Assembly (NCBI GenBank): GCA_963837465.1
Contig: CAWINB010000001.1
Coordinates: forward strand, 220,981 to 284,980
Direction of reading: 5' to 3'
Length of the DNA stretch: 64,000 bases
Origin: Candidatus Doudnabacteria bacterium
GTDB lineage: Bacteria > Patescibacteriota > Doudnabacteria > UBA920
In this document: positions 3,124 to 63,382 of the stretch, piece by piece
Position numbering within the stretch: position 1 is the stretch's first letter
Layout of the letters: each line of letters opens with the position of its first letter
The notes under the pieces: generated by a model
Database searches by the model: none
Seen by the model: only the letters and a program-made list of their open reading frames with translations
Told to the model about the DNA's origin: nothing
Translations under genes and position numbers: made by a program

Positions 3124-3269
3124 ATAATATAGATTACAATTAACAGCTAAAACTATTCGGCAACTAACAGACATTATAAAATAAAACCCCGAAAAAGAAA
3201 AGACAACCAGGAGTTTTGCCGGACGGCGCCTTTAAAAGGTTGAATATTAAGGCAAAAATTGGGGCCAGT

Positions 3270-7539: not shown

Positions 7540-8733
7540 TTACTTCTTTTCCATGGCTCTTAGCTTGGCCGCCTTTGAACGCGGGTTTTGTTTTAATTCT
7601 TCCGGCGAAGCGGTAATTATTTTTTTGGTTAAAATTTTGCCCCGCGGATTTTTGCCGCAAATACACCGCGGGAAATCCGGCGGACAAACACAGCCTTTGG
7701 CCATCCCCGCAAAAAATTGCTTTACCATTCTGTCTTCCAAAGAGTGGAAACTCACCACCACCAGCCGGCCGCCCGGGGCCAACAAATCAAAAGCTTTGGG
7801 TAAAAAACCTGAAAGGTTTTCTAGTTCATGATTTACTTCAATCCTTAACGCCTGGAAGATTCTTCGGGCGGAGTCGTCGGCTTTGTGCTTAACCGGCTTA
7901 GGCAGCGCGTCCTGGATTATCCGGTAAAGATCGTTTGTGTGTTTGATTTCTACCCCCTTACCCCTAGCCCCTATAACCTTGCCAGCTATTTGCCTGCTGA
8001 ATTTTTCTTCCCCATATTCGTAAAAAATTTTCTCCAGCCTTTTTTGGTCGTAATTATTTAAAATAAATTTGGCATCTTCGGGCTGTGACTGGTCAAACCG
8101 CATATCCAGCGGCTGGTTGGTTTGAAAGCTGATTCCCCGGTGCTCCAGCTCGTAAGACGAAAGTCCCAAATCCGCCACAATTCCATCCGGCGCCGGAAAA
8201 TTATGGTTCTTTATAATATGGTCTATTTTGGAAAAATTCCCTTGAACAAGCGAAATATTATAATATAATGATTCAAGGTGGGTTGGGGCTGGTGCCGAGC
8301 GAATCCTTGACAGTTTCGTCTCGCGGGTTCGATCCCCGTCCGGTCCGCCACTTAAAACCCGAAGGTTTGACAAACTCTGAACGTCTGATATACTAGAATT
8401 AACTGTCAAGGTTTCGCTCTGAAGCGCCGGTTTGAGGCCGGAAACCGTCCTTAATTGGGCGGTTTTTTCGTTACTCCAAGAGCTTTTAAAATTCTCAATA
8501 GCATCCTTATCTAAATCTATAGATAGTAATTTCCCTGTCTCCCCAATTTCTTTTAATATCGCCTTGCTGTATCCTCCGCCCCCCAGCGTGGCGTCAACAA
8601 TATTCTTGCCGGGCTTGGGCGCAAGATAAGAAACAACCTCATTAAGTAAAACCGGAGTGTGTTCATAATTATTGACCATGATTGAACAAAATTGACGATG
8701 ATTGACAAGATTGCCACAGCGAATCGTGTTCAA
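7540..8733 (-). CDS. rsmH: 16S rRNA m4C1402 methyltransferase RsmH (MraW) carrying an in-frame insertion of about 65 aa.
   Basis: N-terminus HTPVLLNEVVSYLAPKPGKNIVDATLGGGGYSKAIL and C-terminal ...GGRLVVVSFHSLEDRMVK are canonical RsmH. The protein is 397 aa against about 310 typical. The extra segment (SSWSNEKTAQLRTVSG...GGPDGDRTRETKLSRIRSAPAPTHLESL...) is encoded by about 8245-8440 and is low-complexity. Confidence 0.8.
   Translation of the reverse strand: MNTIRCGNLVNHRQFCSIMVNNYEHTPVLLNEVVSYLAPKPGKNIVDATLGGGGYSKAILKEIGETGKLLSIDLDKDAIENFKSSWSNEKTAQLRTVSGLKPALQSETLTVNSSISDVQSLSNLRVLSGGPDGDRTRETKLSRIRSAPAPTHLESLYYNISLVQGNFSKIDHIIKNHNFPAPDGIVADLGLSSYELEHRGISFQTNQPLDMRFDQSQPEDAKFILNNYDQKRLEKIFYEYGEEKFSRQIAGKVIGARGKGVEIKHTNDLYRIIQDALPKPVKHKADDSARRIFQALRIEVNHELENLSGFLPKAFDLLAPGGRLVVVSFHSLEDRMVKQFFAGMAKGCVCPPDFPRCICGKNPRGKILTKKIITASPEELKQNPRSKAAKLRAMEKK
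8242..8269 (+). promoter_or_regulatory. Near-consensus sigma70-type promoter (TTGAAC-16-TATAAT) antisense to rsmH. It faces the tRNA-like element.
   Basis: ttgaac at 8242-8247 and tataat at 8264-8269 with a 16-nt spacer. Confidence 0.4.
8286..8350 (+). ncRNA. tRNA-like module (acceptor stem + T-arm + CCA; no canonical D or anticodon arms) embedded antisense inside the rsmH insertion.
   Basis: 5' GGGCUGG pairs with CCGGUCC (two G-U pairs). U follows at the U8 position. The T-arm is GCGGG-UUCGAUC-CCCGU. The discriminator is G and the 3' end is CCA at 8348-8350. Only 28 nt separate the acceptor strand and the T-arm. A 19-nt segment at 8297-8315 is complementary to 8401-8419, with one mismatch. 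Confidence 0.4.
8440..8470 (+). terminator. Intrinsic terminator closing the antisense unit inside rsmH.
   Basis: Stem accgucc / gggcggu (7 bp including one G-U) with loop uuaauug, followed by TTTTTT. Confidence 0.4.
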
Positions 8734-12012: not shown

Positions 12013-13683
12013 CTATTTATCCAGCGGCAACGAAAAAGAAAAAGTGCTGCCCAAGCCCTCTCCGGCCGACTCGGCCCAAATCCTGCCGCCGTGCGTCTCC
12101 ACAATCCCCCTGCTGACTACCAAACCCAAGCCTGTACCCTTGCGCGCGTGGTCTCCTGTTTTAAGCTGCTTAAACTTACTGAATAAGTCCGCCAAGTCTT
12201 CGCGCGAAACGCCGATGCCGGTATCTTTAACGGAAACCGTCGCAATTTTTTCGCCGGCGTTTAAAGAAAGATTCATGTTAATCTGGCCGCTGTCGCTGTA
12301 CTTAATGGCGTTGCTTAAAAGATTGCCCAAAACCTGGCTGATTCTGACCCGGTCAAACTTCAGCAAATATTTGTCGGGCGCGGTAACGCCAATAGTTAAA
12401 TGTTTAGCCTCGGCCTGCGGCTTAAAGGCTTTGGCTTGTTCGTTTATAACTTCCACAATATCATACTGCTGCGGGTTAAGCTCAAATTTTCCGGCTTCTA
12501 TTTTGGCCACGTCCAGCAAATCGTTAACCAGCTCCAGCATATTGTTGGAAGCGGTTTCTATGGTCATCATAGTATCTTTAATCTTTGCCTGCTCCACGCC
12601 CGTGGCGGCGGCAACGCTTTTGAGCAAACTTTCGCTGGACCAGCGCACGGCCGTTAAAGGCGCCCTTAGTTCATGCACCATCATGGCCGTAAATTCCTGC
12701 CGCGTTTTTTCCAAAGTTTTTTCCGTAGTGATGTCGTGGAAAAGCACGCTGGCGGCTATAATCTGGCCGCGATTGTCTTTAACCGGGGAAATAGTCAGTT
12801 CCAAAGCTTTATCTTTCAAGACCACTTCCGGCAAAGTAATGGTTTTGCCCTGGGCTATGGCCTGGTCAATTTTGGTGCGCAAATCCACTTTGCCGGCCAA
12901 GCCGTCTATAATATCAAACATTGTCAGCGGCTTGCCCGGAGCAATGCCTAAAATTCCCAAAATCACGGGATTATAAACCCCCAGCTCATTGTTTAAATCC
13001 ACGGTAATAACGCCGTCAGCCAGGGAATAAATTACGGCGGCCAGTTTGCCTTTTTCACTTTCCAGCACCGCCTGCAGTTTGGAAACCGCGGTCGCGGCCT
13101 GGTTGGTAATGGCGTACAAAATAGAAGCCTGCTCCCCGCCGTAGCGGCCTTTTTCCGAGGAAGCTACGTTAATCAACCCCACCAGTTTTTCGGAAATGAC
13201 CACGGGCAAATTAAAAAACGACTCTACCCCGACTTTTAAACTGTCATCCAAAATGGTGCCGGTTATGCTCTCGTCCACGCTTAAGGAATTCCGGATTTTT
13301 TTGTCCAAAATGGCTTCGTAGGACATCATCATTTTTTCCTTGACCTGCTCTATAAAATTATGATTGACGGGGTTGGCCACCTGGCACTTAAACACCGTCC
13401 GTCCGTCGTTTTCCAAAACCATATAGGAAACCGTATCGTAATTTAAAAGATTGCCCAGGGAGCTGGTAATAATATCCACGATTTTGTTGGTATTCAAAGA
13501 ATAGCCGATGCGCTCGCTGATTTCCTTGAGCACCTGGGCCTGGTAAACCCTTTGCTGGAGCGTTAAAGACTGGTTGGCCTGGGAACGCAAAAATTTGCGT
13601 TCGCGCAAAGAAGCGTAAATATAAGCGCTGACCACAATGGCCAGCATCACAAAATCTATGGCGATGAGGATGTTGATTATCAT
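12013..13683 (-). CDS. Sensor histidine kinase (N-terminal TM, sensory domain, HisKA + HATPase_c).
   Basis: H-box FTAMMVHELRAPLTAV, and N/G boxes in ...LLSNAIKYSDSG...KDTGIGV...GTGLGLVVSRG. Confidence 0.8.
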   Translation of the reverse strand: MIINILIAIDFVMLAIVVSAYIYASLRERKFLRSQANQSLTLQQRVYQAQVLKEISERIGYSLNTNKIVDIITSSLGNLLNYDTVSYMVLENDGRTVFKCQVANPVNHNFIEQVKEKMMMSYEAILDKKIRNSLSVDESITGTILDDSLKVGVESFFNLPVVISEKLVGLINVASSEKGRYGGEQASILYAITNQAATAVSKLQAVLESEKGKLAAVIYSLADGVITVDLNNELGVYNPVILGILGIAPGKPLTMFDIIDGLAGKVDLRTKIDQAIAQGKTITLPEVVLKDKALELTISPVKDNRGQIIAASVLFHDITTEKTLEKTRQEFTAMMVHELRAPLTAVRWSSESLLKSVAAATGVEQAKIKDTMMTIETASNNMLELVNDLLDVAKIEAGKFELNPQQYDIVEVINEQAKAFKPQAEAKHLTIGVTAPDKYLLKFDRVRISQVLGNLLSNAIKYSDSGQINMNLSLNAGEKIATVSVKDTGIGVSREDLADLFSKFKQLKTGDHARKGTGLGLVVSRGIVETHGGRIWAESAGEGLGSTFSFSLPLDK

Positions 13684-13689
13684 TTTTGT

Positions 13690-13803
13690 TTTTATCGAAT
13701 ATACGAATTCAGACGAATAAACGAATGTCTACGAATTTACGAATGATGGCGCCGGTATTCGTAGTTATTCGTGGATTCGTTTCTATTCGTAAATTCGATT
13801 TAT
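13690..13803. repeat. Heptad-array palindromic element, ACGAAT family.
   Basis: atACGAATtcagACGAATaaACGAATgtctACGAATttACGAATgatggcgccggtATTCGTagttATTCGTggATTCGTttctATTCGTaaATTCGattta. It shares the 3' motif ATTCGTAAATTCGATTTA with the copy at 58741-58851. Confidence 0.65.
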
Positions 13804-15454: not shown

Positions 15455-16870
15455 TTACGTGCCTTTATCCGCGTATTTTTCGCGCAGGCGCCCAAAACCA
15501 ATGGAGTCGCGAAAGACTTTGCCGGCGGCGAGGACGGGGGCGCGGCAGACGGTGAAATCGCCGTATTTGTTGTTAATTTGGTCCAGGGCAAAACTGACGC
15601 GGCTTTTTTTGTCCTCGCGCTCAAATAAACCAAGCTGGTGGGCAAGGGGGATTAAGCCGCCTACGGTGACACCGATTAATTTAAATTCCCGGGGCGGAGC
15701 GCTTGCCATCACAACTTTAAAAATCTTTACGCACTGGGAAAAAATTTCCCGGCCGTCGTAAAGGTAAAAGCCCAGTTTTTCGTCCTTGCCAAAAGACTGG
15801 TAATTTTTGTCGCGGACGTAAAAGCTGACAACATTACCCATAAGCCCCTGCCGGCGCAGCCTGCGGCCCACCATCTCGCACAATTTGTACAGCACCGGCA
15901 TAAAAAATTCCGGCTTTCGGTATTCCATAGGCAGGGTATACATATGGCCGATGGATTTAATTTTATCATCCTGCTCAACCTGCGGCTTCCAAGTAGATTC
16001 CAGTTGCCCCATAGCGTGCAAGTGATGCCCTAAGATGCCAAACCTTGCCACCAACTTGGAACGCGGATAATCCCGCAAATCTTTTAAGCTGTTAATGCCC
16101 AGTTCCCCAAGCCGTTTTTCCTGCCGCCGCGCTATGCCGGGGATGTCTGTCAACTTAAGCTTATTGTAAAGTTCCTCTTTTTCCAGAATTAACGGCTTTT
16201 TATTTTGCTGGCTAATCTCTAACCCCTTAGCCCTAAACCCTATCACCACCATTCCATCCGGTTTTTGCATATCCGAAGCAATTTTAGCCAGCAGTTTATT
16301 TTCCGCAATTCCTATACTGCAACTCAACCAATCCCCGACTTCTTTTTTCATCCGCGCTTTAATTTCACCGGCAATATTTATAGCCTCTTGAAACGGATTA
16401 ATATTGCATTCCGATACCATCCCGAACGGAGTGAGGGATCCCTTAATCACAAAATCATCAGGTAATCCGGAGTTAAGGGATTCCTCTCTCGGCTGCACTC
16501 GCTCGAAATGGTACCTATAGGCACTACTGCTATTACAAACCTTTGTCATATCTATAAAAACTTCGTCTATGCTATATTTTTCCACAAAATTACTGTAATC
16601 GCCCACAACTTTTACCATTAAGCGGTTGTAATAGCGGTAACGTTCCGGGTTGGTATGGACTAAAATAATTTTTGGATAAAGTTTTTTAGCCTCCCACACC
16701 GGCGTGCCGGTTTTAATCCCCCACCTTTTGGCCTCAATACTCGCCGCGATAATAATCCCGCCCAAATGCTCGCACACCCCCAAAGGCCTGCCGCGGTATT
16801 GGGGATTATCCTGCTGCTCAACGGAGGCAAAGTAACTGTTCATATCCAGATGGAAGATGATAGGCTGCAT
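15455..16870 (-). CDS. dinB: Y-family DNA polymerase (DinB / Pol IV-like) with an in-frame insertion of about 40 aa.
   Basis: FHLDMNSYFASVEQ, SIDEVFIDMT and ...LAKIASDMQKPDG.... Between the DEVFID motif and the next helix there is an extra segment (KVCNSSSAYRYHFERVQPREESLNSGLPDDFVIKGSLTPFGM). This segment is encoded by a palindromic repeat element at 16417-16510. Confidence 0.8.
   Translation of the reverse strand: MQPIIFHLDMNSYFASVEQQDNPQYRGRPLGVCEHLGGIIIAASIEAKRWGIKTGTPVWEAKKLYPKIILVHTNPERYRYYNRLMVKVVGDYSNFVEKYSIDEVFIDMTKVCNSSSAYRYHFERVQPREESLNSGLPDDFVIKGSLTPFGMVSECNINPFQEAINIAGEIKARMKKEVGDWLSCSIGIAENKLLAKIASDMQKPDGMVVIGFRAKGLEISQQNKKPLILEKEELYNKLKLTDIPGIARRQEKRLGELGINSLKDLRDYPRSKLVARFGILGHHLHAMGQLESTWKPQVEQDDKIKSIGHMYTLPMEYRKPEFFMPVLYKLCEMVGRRLRRQGLMGNVVSFYVRDKNYQSFGKDEKLGFYLYDGREIFSQCVKIFKVVMASAPPREFKLIGVTVGGLIPLAHQLGLFEREDKKSRVSFALDQINNKYGDFTVCRAPVLAAGKVFRDSIGFGRLREKYADKGT
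16417..16510. repeat. Palindromic repeat element of the 'GGGATCCCTT'-core family, inserted in frame within dinB.
   Basis: ccatcccgaacggagtgagggatcccttaa...ttaagggattcctctctcggctgcactcgctcgaaatgg. The two arms are reverse complements. It is homologous to the copies at 18757-18879, 34103-34200 and 50118-50180. Confidence 0.55.
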
Positions 16871-18750: not shown

Positions 18751-18756
18751 TACTTT

Positions 18757-18879
18757 GAGTTACGAAACGCCATTCCGAGCGCAGCGAGGAATCCCTTTCG
18801 ATAAGAATTATCCTTAGATAAGGGATCCCTCACTCGGCTGCACTCGTTCGGGATGGCGAAAAGCCAGTGTTTCGTAATT
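18757..18879. repeat. Intergenic copy of the 'GGGATCCCTT'-core palindromic element. This is the longest copy.
   Basis: gttacgaaacgccattccgagcgcagcgaggaatccctt...aagggatccctcactcggctgcactcgttcgggatggcgaaaagccagtgtttcgtaat. Both the outer and inner arms are reverse complements. Confidence 0.55.
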
Positions 18880-18918
18880 CAAAGCCACAAACTTGTCTTC
18901 TTGTGTTTAAAATAGGGT

Positions 18919-19926: not shown

Positions 19927-19933
19927 CTAAATT

Positions 19934-20008
19934 GGAATTATGAATTAGGAATTAGGAATTATGGGCCTTGATCATAATTCCTAATTCATAATTCCTAATT
20001 CATAATTC
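19934..20008. repeat. Heptad-array palindrome, GAATTAG/GAATTAT family.
   Basis: ggaattatgaattaggaattaggaattatgggccttgatcataattcctaattcataattcctaattcataattc. Confidence 0.6.
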
Positions 20009-20075
20009 AGAACCTATTATACCAAAATCCCCAATGTTGTCATAGCCCTTAAAATTAAGCTATAATTGATACAAT

Positions 20076-34102: not shown

Positions 34103-34200
34103 GCCATTCCGAGTCCGGAGTGCATAAGGCGGACGAGGAATCCCTTAAATATTACCGATCGTGACAGTTAAGGGATCCTTCACCTTCAGATGCATTCAGG
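34103..34200. repeat. Degenerate intergenic copy of the 'GGGATCCCTT'-core palindromic element.
   Basis: gccattccgagtccggagtgcataaggcggacgaggaatcccttaa...ttaagggatccttcaccttcagatgcattcagg. A 'GGGTTAG'-type heptad stretch (gggtttagggtatagggttaggg) lies just upstream at 34075-34100. Confidence 0.4.
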
Positions 34201-34201
34201 T

Positions 34202-34582
34202 TCAGGACGACACAACACTTGGTTTATTTTTATATTTAAAATATCTGATGATTGACAAAATTATTAAAACTACTACTACCCAAAAAAGTACATTTAACAA
34301 AAAATCGAGGTGAGAGAAAGAAACAAAAGCTTTATAAAATACCCCGAACAGATAATAATTTGGGTCGCTTGTATTATAAAAATCTGCATAATGATAAAAT
34401 GGGAAGCCTATTACCGTGGCATCGCAGTTTAATGAAGCTCCAGAGCACATATTCGAATAATAAAAAGCCCGAGGAGCTGGCACAGTTCTGGTATAACCCT
34501 CAAAAGCAATAGCAATGAGTGCCCCAAGAATTACACTCCACACCACCAAATCCGTTTTTGATTTTAAACTAAAAATTTTCAT
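34202..34582 (-). CDS. Hypothetical membrane protein.
   Basis: 126 aa with two TM segments. Confidence 0.35.
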   Translation of the reverse strand: MKIFSLKSKTDLVVWSVILGALIAIAFEGYTRTVPAPRAFYYSNMCSGASLNCDATVIGFPFYHYADFYNTSDPNYYLFGVFYKAFVSFSHLDFLLNVLFWVVVVLIILSIIRYFKYKNKPSVVSS

Positions 34583-34640
34583 TTGTATTTTGCATCCATC
34601 CCGGAATTTTTAAGGCTGTAAAAATATCCGGGATCCAGAA

Positions 34641-34991
34641 TCATTTAATTATTTCATCATATAAATCTTTCCATTCCGGATTAGACTTTTCAATAAGCTC
34701 CAATTTCCATTTTCTTTGCCATTTTTTAAGCAATTTTTCTTTCTTTAAAGCCTGTTCTTTATCTTCAAATTGTTCAAAGTAAACTAAAATATGAACTTGG
34801 TATTTATTGGTAAAACCTTTTACTATATCATTTTTATGCTCATATACTCTTTTTATTAAATTCCTAGTGTAACCGACATACAAAGTTCCGTTTCTTTTGC
34901 TGGCTAAGATATACACGTAGTGATAAACATCAAATGGCATAGTTACTGGATCCCGGATATTTTTTGTTTGCTTATTTTTATTCTTTAACAA
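34641..34991 (-). CDS. GIY-YIG nuclease superfamily protein.
   Basis: ...YVYILASKRNGTLYVGYTRNLIKRVYEH.... Confidence 0.7.
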   Translation of the reverse strand: MLKNKNKQTKNIRDPVTMPFDVYHYVYILASKRNGTLYVGYTRNLIKRVYEHKNDIVKGFTNKYQVHILVYFEQFEDKEQALKKEKLLKKWQRKWKLELIEKSNPEWKDLYDEIIK

Positions 34992-35012
34992 AAAATTCCG
35001 GGATGGAAGCAG

Positions 35013-38417: not shown

Positions 38418-38500
38418 AGTAATTAGCGTTTAGCGCATAGTGATTAGCGGATAGATTAGGAACGCCTGTTTTCCTAAACGCTATACGCTAACCGCTAAAC
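38418..38500. repeat. GGGTTAG/GCGTTAG-family heptad palindromic element.
   Basis: ttagcgtttagcgcatagtgattagcggatag...cctaaacgctatacgctaaccgctaaacgcta. Confidence 0.55.
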
Positions 38501-38501
38501 G

Positions 38502-39185
38502 CTACATATTGATTATCTGATTAAAATCCTTGGCAATTAAACTTGCGCCACCGATTAGCAAACCGTCGACGTTGCGTTGTTTTAAAAATTCCGCGGCGTT
38601 GGCTAAATTAATACTGCCGCCGTACAAAACTTTTTCGGCTTTATATTTGTTTTTAATAAAAATCGCGATTTTTTCCGCGTGCTCCGGCGTGGCCGCTCTG
38701 CCGCTGCCAATGGCCCAAACCGGTTCGTAGGCCACTGCTACTTTTTTAGCATCAACATCTTTTAAATCCGCCTCCAGCTGGCCGCGCAAAACATCCACCA
38801 CGTCCAAATCATCCTGCTCCACGGTAGTACCAAAACCCACGCACAAAACCGGCGTAATTTTATGCTCCAGCAAAGACCGCAACTTAAAATTCACCATCCC
38901 ATCACTCTCACCCAAAGCCCGTTTTTCACTGTGCCCGACAATGCAATATTTAACCCCCAAATCTTTCAACTGCGCCGCGCTGGTCTGCCCGGTAAACGCG
39001 CCCTTGTCCTGCCAAAAACAATCCTGCGCGCCCAAGTTGGGATAATTGATGGACGACAAATAGATGGTCGGCGGACAAAGCACAACTTTATTTTTGGCTT
39101 TAGTGGAAATCGAAGACGCCAACTTCTGCGCGTCTTTTAGAGTATTAGGATTTAACTTCCAATTTGCGATAATAAGTTTTTTCAT
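38502..39185 (-). CDS. tpiA: Triosephosphate isomerase.
   Basis: ...IIANWK..., ...VAYEPVWAIGSG..., ...GGASL.... Confidence 0.85.
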   Translation of the reverse strand: MKKLIIANWKLNPNTLKDAQKLASSISTKAKNKVVLCPPTIYLSSINYPNLGAQDCFWQDKGAFTGQTSAAQLKDLGVKYCIVGHSEKRALGESDGMVNFKLRSLLEHKITPVLCVGFGTTVEQDDLDVVDVLRGQLEADLKDVDAKKVAVAYEPVWAIGSGRAATPEHAEKIAIFIKNKYKAEKVLYGGSINLANAAEFLKQRNVDGLLIGGASLIAKDFNQIINM

Positions 39186-50117: not shown

Positions 50118-50180
50118 CCATCCATGCCTGAAAGCACTGATAAGGGATCCCTCGGATGCACTCGGGATGGCAGATGGATG
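50118..50180. repeat. Short copy of the 'GGGATCCCTT'-core palindromic element.
   Basis: ccatccatgcctgaaagcactgataagggatccctcggatgcactcgggatggcag. Confidence 0.35.
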
Positions 50181-60600: not shown

Positions 60601-60716
60601 TGAGGTAGGGATTAGGGTATAGGGATTAGGGTATAGGGATTAGGGTATAGGGATTAGGGTATAGAAGGAAACGCTTTCCTGCTAAACGCTAATCCCTAGC
60701 CGCTAGACGCTAATTT
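60601..60716. repeat. Tandem 14-bp repeat (GGGATTAGGGTATA)x4 abutting the rpsZ start, followed by an inverted GCGTTAG-type segment.
   Basis: tagggattagggtatagggattagggtatagggattagggtatagggattagggtatagaaggaaacgctttcctgctaaacgctaatccctagccgctagacgctaa. Confidence 0.7.
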
Positions 60717-61254: not shown

Positions 61255-61320
61255 AGAATTAGTTATTTAGTGGATAGCAGTTAGCGTCTAGCCCTCTATA
61301 CGCTAACCGCTATACGCTCG
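61255..61320. repeat. GCGTATA/GCGTTAG-family heptad element between rplX and rplE.
   Basis: ttagtggatagcagttagcgtctagccctctatacgctaaccgctatacgctcgtc. Confidence 0.5.
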
Positions 61321-61639: not shown

Positions 61640-61649
61640 AGGATTATTT

Positions 61650-61726
61650 TTACGAAGTACGAATGTTTACGAACTTACAAAGGGAAACCGATTCGTACTT
61701 TCGTACCTGTTCGTACTTCGTAAAAT
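61650..61726. repeat. Heptad-array palindromic element, TACGAA family, between rplN and rplX.
   Basis: TACGAAgTACGAAtgttTACGAActtacaaagggaaaccgaTTCGTActtTCGTAcctgTTCGTAcTTCGTAaaatc. Confidence 0.65.
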
Positions 61727-63272: not shown

Positions 63273-63382
63273 AGGGTATTAAGTAAAATTAAGTAAAATT
63301 TTTAATTAAATAAAATTGAAGCGCAGTCGCAGTCAAATTTTACTTAATTTTACTTAATTATGGCCAATTTTAATTAATCCTC

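Follow-up and report, generated by a model that had tools for sequence, protein, structure and literature searches.

The DNA analysed here, a stretch of 64,000 nucleotides from a Candidatus Doudnabacteria bacterium (the window), carries a gene for the Y-family DNA polymerase IV, dinB, into which a palindromic repeat element is inserted in frame. The gene lies on the minus strand at positions 15455–16870 and is an intact open reading frame (ORF) of 471 amino acids in which all family-invariant residues are present; the invariant columns include S100, I101, D102, and E103. Homologues of its product carry the Pfam domains IMS and IMS_C, and DNA polymerase IV entries in the PDB match it down to E = 1.8e-41. 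In a protein search its kin were DinBs of the candidate phyla radiation (CPR, or Patescibacteria), with named matches from Doudnabacteria and Patescibacteria. The element (16415–16513, minus strand) is 99 nt or 33 codons long and encodes DinB residues 120–152 (peptide YHFERVQPREESLNSGLPDDFVIKGSLTPFGMV); the junction peptides in the predicted protein are AYRYHFER... and ...TPFGMVSECNINPFQEAINIAGEIK. The original prediction, made from the letters alone, had quoted an imperfect palindrome on the plus strand at 16417–16510. Those letters are present as quoted, and we refined the boundaries by analogy with twenty-two other copies of the element, which have the ends T-GTCAT...ATGAC-A.

The sense strand of dinB forms one extended hairpin at the element. 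Its energy is −45.5 kcal/mol across 108 nt (z = −4.8), a stability matched by none of 200 shuffled sequences. An alignment of twenty-three copies delimits two units within it. The unit that is 5′ on the sense strand, the A-arm, occupies 16473–16513 on the minus strand and reads TACCATTTCGAGCGAGTGCAGCCGAGAGAGGAATCCCTTAA; the 3′ unit, the G-arm, occupies 16415–16446 on the same strand and reads TTAAGGGATCCCTCACTCCGTTCGGGATGGTA. Between them lies an AT-rich apical loop (16447–16472, minus strand) that varies from copy to copy, its columns being unconserved in the alignment. Rfam gave no match at the element at the gathering threshold when the whole window was searched, nor at E-values up to 1 for positions 16350–16580.

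The dinB segment is an insertion and not an old DinB loop. As the original prediction had anticipated, it is absent from the three closest orthologues (P0002–P0004, 68–69 per cent identity), in which the spacing from the CN motif to the PF.EA motif is 14–15 residues versus 45 in the window DinB; from the dinB DNA of one of these three (L003); and from the solved DinB and Dpo4 structures. DinB residues 113–164 align to four residues of the bacterial DNA polymerase IV 7yll, a gap that corresponds to Dpo4 residues 112–115. An earlier estimate of about forty extra residues was right that extra residues are present, but the excess is 31–33 relative to the nearest orthologues and about 48 relative to the solved structures, where the loop has about four residues. 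An AlphaFold model based on thirty-three homologues is confident in the core, with blocks at a predicted local distance difference test score (pLDDT) of 88–96 on either side of the insert, and gives residues 117–153 a pLDDT below 50 with no secondary structure. Going by this model, the insert would form a 33-residue disordered surface loop. This fits one half of the earlier expectation of a surface loop at the palm/finger junction. The position is another matter: the loop comes after the strand that bears the catalytic Asp-Glu, and from the alignment to Dpo4 112–115 and what we take to be the domain limits of Dpo4, it would lie in the palm instead.

The same repeat family occurs elsewhere in the window. 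One full intergenic copy, with the ends GCCAT...ATGGC, lies at 18769–18857, just downstream of mreB and before the next gene. It folds at −62 to −63 kcal/mol (z about −7 to −8) and lies inside the loop of another hairpin that surrounds it (18752–18884). In the original prediction this copy spanned 18757–18879 and its right outer arm was given as CGTTTCGTAAT; the actual reading is TGTTTCGTAAT. Another full intergenic copy, in which both arms are long, lies at 34103–34211 between an ORF for a 126-amino-acid membrane protein and a PfkB-like kinase ORF. We considered whether this copy splits a gene and rejected the idea; the flanking ORFs are unrelated, so the copy is intergenic. A single G-arm, also intergenic, lies at 50141–50171 on the minus strand. 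The family of four copies first described is thus real but consists of three full copies and one half copy, one of the four being intragenic.

The family resemblance holds under proper alignment, and motif counts exceed those of shuffled sequences. The core motif GAGGRATCCCTTA occurs five times in the window versus 0.00 expected, and CCATYCCGARCG with at most one mismatch occurs six times versus 1.04 expected, a count reached by none of 100 shuffles. The bare 10-mer GGGATCCCTT is only weakly enriched when one mismatch is allowed (10 versus 4.2 expected), and the signal resides in the longer arm motifs. Over aligned bases the dinB copy is 80–90 per cent identical to the intergenic copies of the window. 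It shares with the 18769 copy a genome-specific compensatory C-G pair at alignment columns 5 and 168 (GCCAT..ATGGC, versus GTCAT..ATGAC elsewhere), and because of this shared change we consider the dinB copy to be derived from this genome's own subfamily. The two are also alike in their layout of one long and one short arm, in which the copies in two other CPR genomes (L001 and L002) differ. A single orientation for all window copies, with the long arm first, was another candidate that we rejected; by the markers that separate A-arms from G-arms it is an artefact, GAGTGCA being possible in both arms.

Aligned with one another, the twenty-three full copies show a 10-bp outer stem, an 11-bp inner stem, and a variable AT-rich loop, with a few compensatory changes. 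Every one is an inverted doublet of one A-arm and one G-arm. The arm markers (counted by eye) are present in all twenty-three, CAT-T-CC...GG-A-AT in one arm and CAT-C-CC...GG-G-AT in the other; at the marker positions the two arms meet in a T·G pair and an A·C mismatch, and pairing within each arm is Watson-Crick. Each unit begins with a tag (TGTC, or GCC in this genome), followed by an AT-first stem, a long loop, and a CC tail, so that reading the arms as separate tagged units accounts for their structure. Each arm is self-complementary (ATTCC/GGAAT), and a cloverleaf or three-hairpin fold was considered for that reason. It was rejected, since arm-only folds are weak compared with the long hairpin, which with DNA parameters reaches −16 to −40 kcal/mol. 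The stem of a unit resembling repetitive extragenic palindromes (REPs) accounts better for the self-complementarity. The copies are preceded by T and followed by A in 91 per cent of cases. Their inverted ends are clear, and we found no consistent direct repeat or target-site duplication in the flanks of the twenty-three.

We scanned one genome per species (species representatives, a set to which the window's own genome does not belong) with an exact pattern. The scan recovered the family in thirty stretches containing thirty-one elements, all from CPR metagenome-assembled genomes, and the family is present in at least twelve genomes other than this one. Nine of the thirty-one elements are in frame within conserved genes: those for MiaA, an amidohydrolase, RecJ, DnaX, MnmA, a class I/II aminotransferase, an ABC ATPase, a DUF6580 protein, and DinB. 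Three of these nine are half copies or lie near a terminus. Beyond DinB, at least eight gene families of related CPR genomes contain in-frame copies. The proposal of an in-frame insertion in dinB comparable to those of Rickettsia is therefore supported by the orthologues that lack it, the structures, the family statistics, and this recurrence in other genes.

The reading frame of the intragenic copies bears on how they are expressed. They occur in both orientations and use different frames, each free of stops, with one frame open throughout. Lengths divisible by three were found in six of eight full-length intragenic copies (the five full copies among the nine above, the dinB copies of the window and L002, and L008) versus five of fifteen intergenic copies (binomial p = 0.02; Fisher p = 0.07). 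Among the copies examined, no conserved gene was found to be split by an out-of-frame or stop-containing copy. The frame statistics and the lack of split genes together favor translation of the inserts over their excision or bypass.

In RecJ alignments, one genome has the dinB-type family, and two more have different palindromic families at a second site of the protein. The recJ genes of L001 (3280–5163) and L002 (3620–5533) have inserts near the C-terminal OB domain that resemble such other families (FRRHSDPERSEGEESQSKGEILRSAQDD in L001; ARSASDEAI...EKIASS...LLAMT in L002), and the RecJ of the window is without them. On contigs of JBBTRN01 (L007, L013, L021, and L022) copies of the dinB-type family have conserved flanks, CTACGCGCTGACT to one side and AGAAGGGTGAATTT to the other, so the repeated unit there exceeds the hairpin.

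DinB itself has been a target in other CPR genomes. In L001 and L002 the family occupies the DinB loop that holds it in the window, at a position that differs by no more than about one codon and in the same orientation and codon phase. In L034 and L035 the family occupies a second DinB loop, after KPDG.VVI, and one gene has a related element in both loops. Among 120 CPR DinBs, the length of loop 1 varies between 5 and 82 residues and that of loop 2 between 5 and 75, and two further sites vary. Many of the inserts look like translations of hairpin repeats that belong to several families. One such family, TGTCATTGCGAG...GAAGCAATC, occupies loop 1 in L036, as confirmed in the DNA. In a neighbour-joining tree of DinB built after masking of the loops, carriers and non-carriers are interspersed, and the sister sequences P0013 and P0039 have the element in loop 1 and loop 2, respectively. 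Given the scattered carriers and the subfamily signature of the window copy, we favor several independent hits on a tolerant loop over one ancient insertion.

Several further observations concern the DinB loops. At the third site, after NVIHFY, five proteins (P0029, P0031, P0100, P0104, and P0108) have a 35-residue insert in common (48 versus 13 residues), and the fourth site, before KLIGVTV, ranges from 8 to 32 residues. Some CPR DinBs have peptides in loops 1 and 2 that resemble translated simple hairpins (QNAKIKMQNLG and ISLSAYQL, as well as SGKCEV at both loops of P0062). The window has hairpins of comparable simplicity, built from short genome-specific units (GAATTAGGAATTA, ATTCGTA, and TAGGGATTAGGGTA) and all intergenic, at 13694–13799, 19929–20012, 38424–38504, 60606–60712, 61269–61318, 61648–61725, and 63278–63358.

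A candidate partner enzyme is encoded 430 nt from the 34103 copy. The gene (34644–34940, minus strand) specifies a stand-alone GIY-YIG nuclease of 99 amino acids, counted from Met18 of the ORF at 34641–34991, with PF01541 (E = 5.8e-17) covering residues 6–80. A single GIY-YIG domain in a protein of about 100 amino acids is what characterizes the Ssn family (cd10448). Experiments have shown that Ssn proteins cleave single-stranded DNA site-specifically, beside the hairpins that flank their own genes (Chenal et al. 2025, PMC11893778). The hairpins are called NTS (CGTCATTCCCGCGMAVGCGGGAATCYRG), and the authors liken the arrangement NTS-ssnA-NTS to an insertion sequence. The window gene is likewise flanked on both sides by inverted hairpins, which end in an NTS-type CCAG. 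The 3′ unit (34598–34634, plus strand) reads ATCCCGGAATTTTT...AAAAATATCCGGGAT followed by the tail CCAG and folds as DNA at −11.2 kcal/mol (z = −3.7); its inverted partner on the 5′ side (34950–35004, minus strand) folds at −14.5 kcal/mol (z = −5.5). These arms are related to those of the dinB element.

In L033 the arms and the gene come together directly. An ORF of 96 amino acids, 53 per cent identical to the window protein and covered by PF01541 at residues 5–77, lies between a G-arm (2821–2857) and an A-arm (3161–3207) of the dinB-type family, in the place of the element loop. The leader of this ORF has a 9-mer, CTAAGTGTA, in common with the loop of the L001 dinB element, which fits a derivation of the doublets by ORF loss. 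Relatives of the nuclease (51–66 per cent identity) are encoded at eighty metagenomic loci, and forty of the seventy for which both flanks are available have flanks that are inverted repeats far above shuffled sequences. Nearly all of these flanks have the form TGTCAT-TCCCGC-GAAA-GCGGGA-ATCCAG (type TGTCATTCCCGCGAAAGCGGGAATCCAG), close to the canonical NTS, and variants with ATTGC/GCAAT or ATTCT/AGAAT stems match other families of DinB insert. The published pattern for the Ssn-related motif (SRM), HGTCWYN(0-2)YYVSBRHN(0-5)WNVSBRGN(0-2)RNCYNB, has seventy-nine matches in 158 kb of metagenomic loci with Ssn homologues. At forty-one of sixty-seven homologue loci it matches on at least one side, on the plus strand upstream and on the minus strand downstream. 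A more distant GIY-YIG gene of 80 amino acids in L011 (6897–7268) lies beside a tRNA gene whose 5′ part (GCGGGATAGAGCAATTGGCA) is duplicated on both sides, an arrangement unlike the hairpin-flanked cassette.

The explanation we prefer, to which we assign a probability of about 0.7, is that the dinB insert belongs to a non-autonomous hairpin repeat dispersed in the genomes of CPR bacteria (Doudnabacteria-type), and is an ORF-less doublet of an Ssn-type cassette that spread in trans and is translated within DinB. Each copy would be an inverted doublet of two tagged hairpin units that fold together into one long hairpin, and the doublet would correspond to the two ends of a cassette (hairpin, GIY-YIG gene, inverted hairpin, as in Ssn/NTS) from which the gene was lost. 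It would then relate to the cassette as a REPIN (a doublet of REPs) does to the gene of its REP-associated tyrosine transposase (RAYT), or as a miniature inverted-repeat transposable element does to an insertion sequence. Spread in trans would presumably depend on recognition and cleavage of single-stranded DNA hairpins by the Ssn-like nuclease, and copies would leave no visible target-site duplication. Within a gene, a copy would persist only if its length is a multiple of three bases, if it is free of stops in the frame used, and if it falls in a tolerant surface loop; selection on these three properties probably decides which intragenic copies survive. In DinB the tolerant loop would be the one after the catalytic Asp-Glu strand, and a polymerase carrying the translated insert there would presumably still be functional.

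A number of observations weigh against this explanation. A GIY-YIG gene between arms of exactly the dinB type was found at one locus only, L033, and the arms around the window gene are a sequence variant different from the dinB element. The strict SRM pattern has no match in the window and one in 287 kb of CPR loci; the CPR arms are therefore architectural relatives only of the published hairpins, being long-looped (at least 20 nt versus 4–5 nt) and tagged with GCC in this genome. What experiments have demonstrated for Ssn is DNA cleavage, not transposition. Isolated single-strand arms fold weakly, at −2 to −6 kcal/mol. Both the ends of the insertions and their lack of a target duplication were deduced from flanks, not from a pair of filled and empty sites. 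By the boundaries used, the intragenic copies of L008 and L012 have lengths that are not divisible by three.

Mobilization could instead be the work of a tyrosine transposase of the IS200/IS605 type (Y1 or RAYT), the GIY-YIG gene being a bystander that shares the hairpins. The doublet architecture and the missing target duplication do fit REPIN/RAYT biology, and a Y1_Tnp gene (PF01797, E = 9e-19) is found two genes from dinB in L002. The inverted repeats around that gene (GGTGTCAGGAGCC), however, are unrelated to the dinB element, and no Y1 homologue was found in the window or in thirty-five other loci. The arms also lack a GTAG tag, CGTC-type REPs are reported to be without a RAYT (PMC3733652), and the arms in L033 bracket a GIY-YIG gene; we regard a tyrosine transposase as an unlikely agent. 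Pairs of element termini set far apart around a transposase were searched for in 346 kb, and none were found. The L002 gene itself (12480–13154, downstream of dinB) is IS200-like and has a 13-nt inverted repeat, with GGCTCCTGACACC as the second arm, and a second, C-terminal fragment lies at 16680–16733. Equally doubtful is one ancient insertion, acquired by this loop in an ancestral CPR bacterium and followed by vertical inheritance and many losses. It would account for the close agreement in position, orientation, and codon phase among the window, L001, and L002. Against it stand the carriers with non-carrier sisters, the sister pair P0013 and P0039 with their different loops, the own-genome signature and 18769-like arm layout of the window copy, and the presence of other repeat families at the same loop, such as that of L036.

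The hairpin might also be part of the gene and not of the protein, either cut from the mRNA or bypassed by the ribosome as are the byp elements of Magnusiomyces mitochondria and the gap in gene 60 of phage T4. CPR bacteria are known for intervening sequences in their rRNA genes, and the sense-strand RNA hairpin is very stable. On the other side, all intragenic copies found keep an open frame, whichever frame and orientation they use, six of eight full-length ones are divisible by three versus one-third of intergenic copies, and no conserved gene was seen to be split by an out-of-frame or stop-containing copy. We consider excision or bypass very improbable. We give even slightly less credence to a non-mobile, lineage-specific DinB loop whose likeness to the repeats arose by gene conversion, template switching, or assembly error. 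CPR DinB loops are indeed hypervariable and often consist of low-complexity, hairpin-forming sequence. However, some 90 nt of the loop are 80–90 per cent identical to dispersed copies in this window and belong to a family found in many other genomes; moreover, the ends are precise and palindromic, and both flanks are contiguous in-frame dinB, unlike a chimeric assembly.

Two other features of the window are recorded here. The RsmH gene (7540–8733, minus strand) encodes 397 amino acids versus 312 in L001 and has an in-frame insert at about 8286–8480. This insert is bounded by a 19-nt inverted repeat (8297–8315 and 8401–8419, 95 per cent complementary) and is unrelated to the dinB element. Its opposite strand contains a stretch resembling the 3′ half of a tRNA (T-arm and acceptor), with a sub-threshold Rfam tRNA match (17.8 bits, E = 0.36). 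In addition, nearly all long ORFs of the window are on the minus strand, and the GC skew of the plus strand is negative throughout, at about −0.03 to −0.075 outside the first 8 kb. The strand bias and skew are consistent with a window that lies on one replichore, with its genes co-oriented with replication.

These results extend to the CPR a phenomenon known from Rickettsia palindromic elements (RPEs) and scattered intragenic REPs, that of selfish palindromes written into proteins. Such inserts change the length of no fewer than four loops in the DinB family, each by tens of residues. They inflate and distort alignments, domain calls, and structure predictions of CPR proteins, and the published SRM pattern would miss the long-looped family of these genomes. 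The L033 locus joins three literatures, on RPEs and CGTC-tagged REPs, on REPIN-like doublets, and on the Ssn GIY-YIG single-stranded DNA nucleases, and the arms around its Ssn-like gene provide a testable candidate enzyme for the repeats. A broader and more tentative suggestion, which in our judgement falls somewhat short of even odds, is that CPR hairpin repeats (several Ssn-associated doublet variants plus simpler genome-specific hairpins) are a major recurrent source of protein length, the same few surface loops in enzymes of DNA repair, replication, and tRNA modification being recolonised; that the Ssn/hairpin system is far wider than reported; and that ORF-less doublets are truly mobile, writing peptides into essential proteins.

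In-frame palindromic repeats (RPEs and intragenic REPs), CGTC-tagged REPs, and the association of Ssn with hairpins were all known before. The view that in-frame insertion is rarely reported outside Rickettsia is out of date, as a catalogue from 2013 already covers intragenic REPs of several species (Di Nocera et al., PMC3733652). In the literature we covered, which left out many subscription papers, we found no account of palindromic, REP-type, or in-frame repeats in CPR or Patescibacteria, nor of the long-looped variant, the in-frame colonisation of DinB and other CPR enzymes, or the arms of an in-frame element around an Ssn-like gene.

REPINs and their RAYTs (Bertels and Rainey 2011, PMC3116915) resemble the CPR system in architecture. 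They too consist of two inverted REP units and a spacer that form one long hairpin, are non-autonomous, and are tied to a single-copy enzyme gene with the same units. Their partner, however, is an HUH/Y1 transposase, their tag is GTAG, and they are essentially extragenic, whereas the window has neither a Y1 homologue nor a GTAG tag. In Ssn/NTS, a single-domain GIY-YIG protein of about 100 amino acids is likewise flanked by inverted hairpins with many further copies genome-wide. It differs in having a role in natural transformation in Neisseria, and ORF-less in-frame doublets are not described in the part of that paper cited here (PMC11893778).

RPE-1 (Ogata et al. 2000, via PMC10969869) is similar by description. 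It is a palindrome of about 100–150 bp without a transposase gene, found between genes and in frame within unrelated housekeeping genes, where its copies were judged compatible with the protein fold; the CPR element is likewise an in-frame palindrome at fold-compatible positions of conserved genes. RPE-1 is confined to Rickettsia, whereas the host here belongs to the CPR. The CGTC-tagged REPs include dRS3 of Neisseria as well as RPE-4 and RPE-6 of Rickettsia conorii (PMC3733652). They are mostly inverted dimers, are reported to be without a dedicated transposase or RAYT, and are intragenic in several species, 'many' of them in genes for DNA synthesis or repair or in tRNA-related genes. DinB, RecJ, DnaX, MiaA, and MnmA fall in the same functional categories, and no CPR phylum is among the hosts named in the part of that paper cited here. 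These REPs have a terminal tag (CGTC, often TGTC or CCTC) and, like the CPR element, an AT-first stem, a short CC(A) tail, and an inverted-dimer arrangement (PMC3733652). In the CPR, the tail is CCC(TTA) after GGAAT or GGGAT, all twenty-three full copies are inverted doublets, and the start tag is TGTC or CGTC in most copies from related genomes; in window copies it is GCC or ACC, outside the listed variants. The CPR units differ from CGTC-tagged REPs in having loops of at least 20 nt versus 4–5 nt and about 5 bp of Watson-Crick pairing, confined to ATTCC/GGAAT or ATCCC/GGGAT, versus a stem of 8–9 bp (PMC3733652). Judged by its anatomy, the dinB element is best read as a long-looped relative of the CGTC-tagged REPs, and it would belong with the hairpin repeats that have a small GIY-YIG nuclease as their partner. 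The comparison with Rickettsia is then closer than an analogy, as the arms appear to share with these REPs the same layout of tag, AT-stem, and CC-tail.

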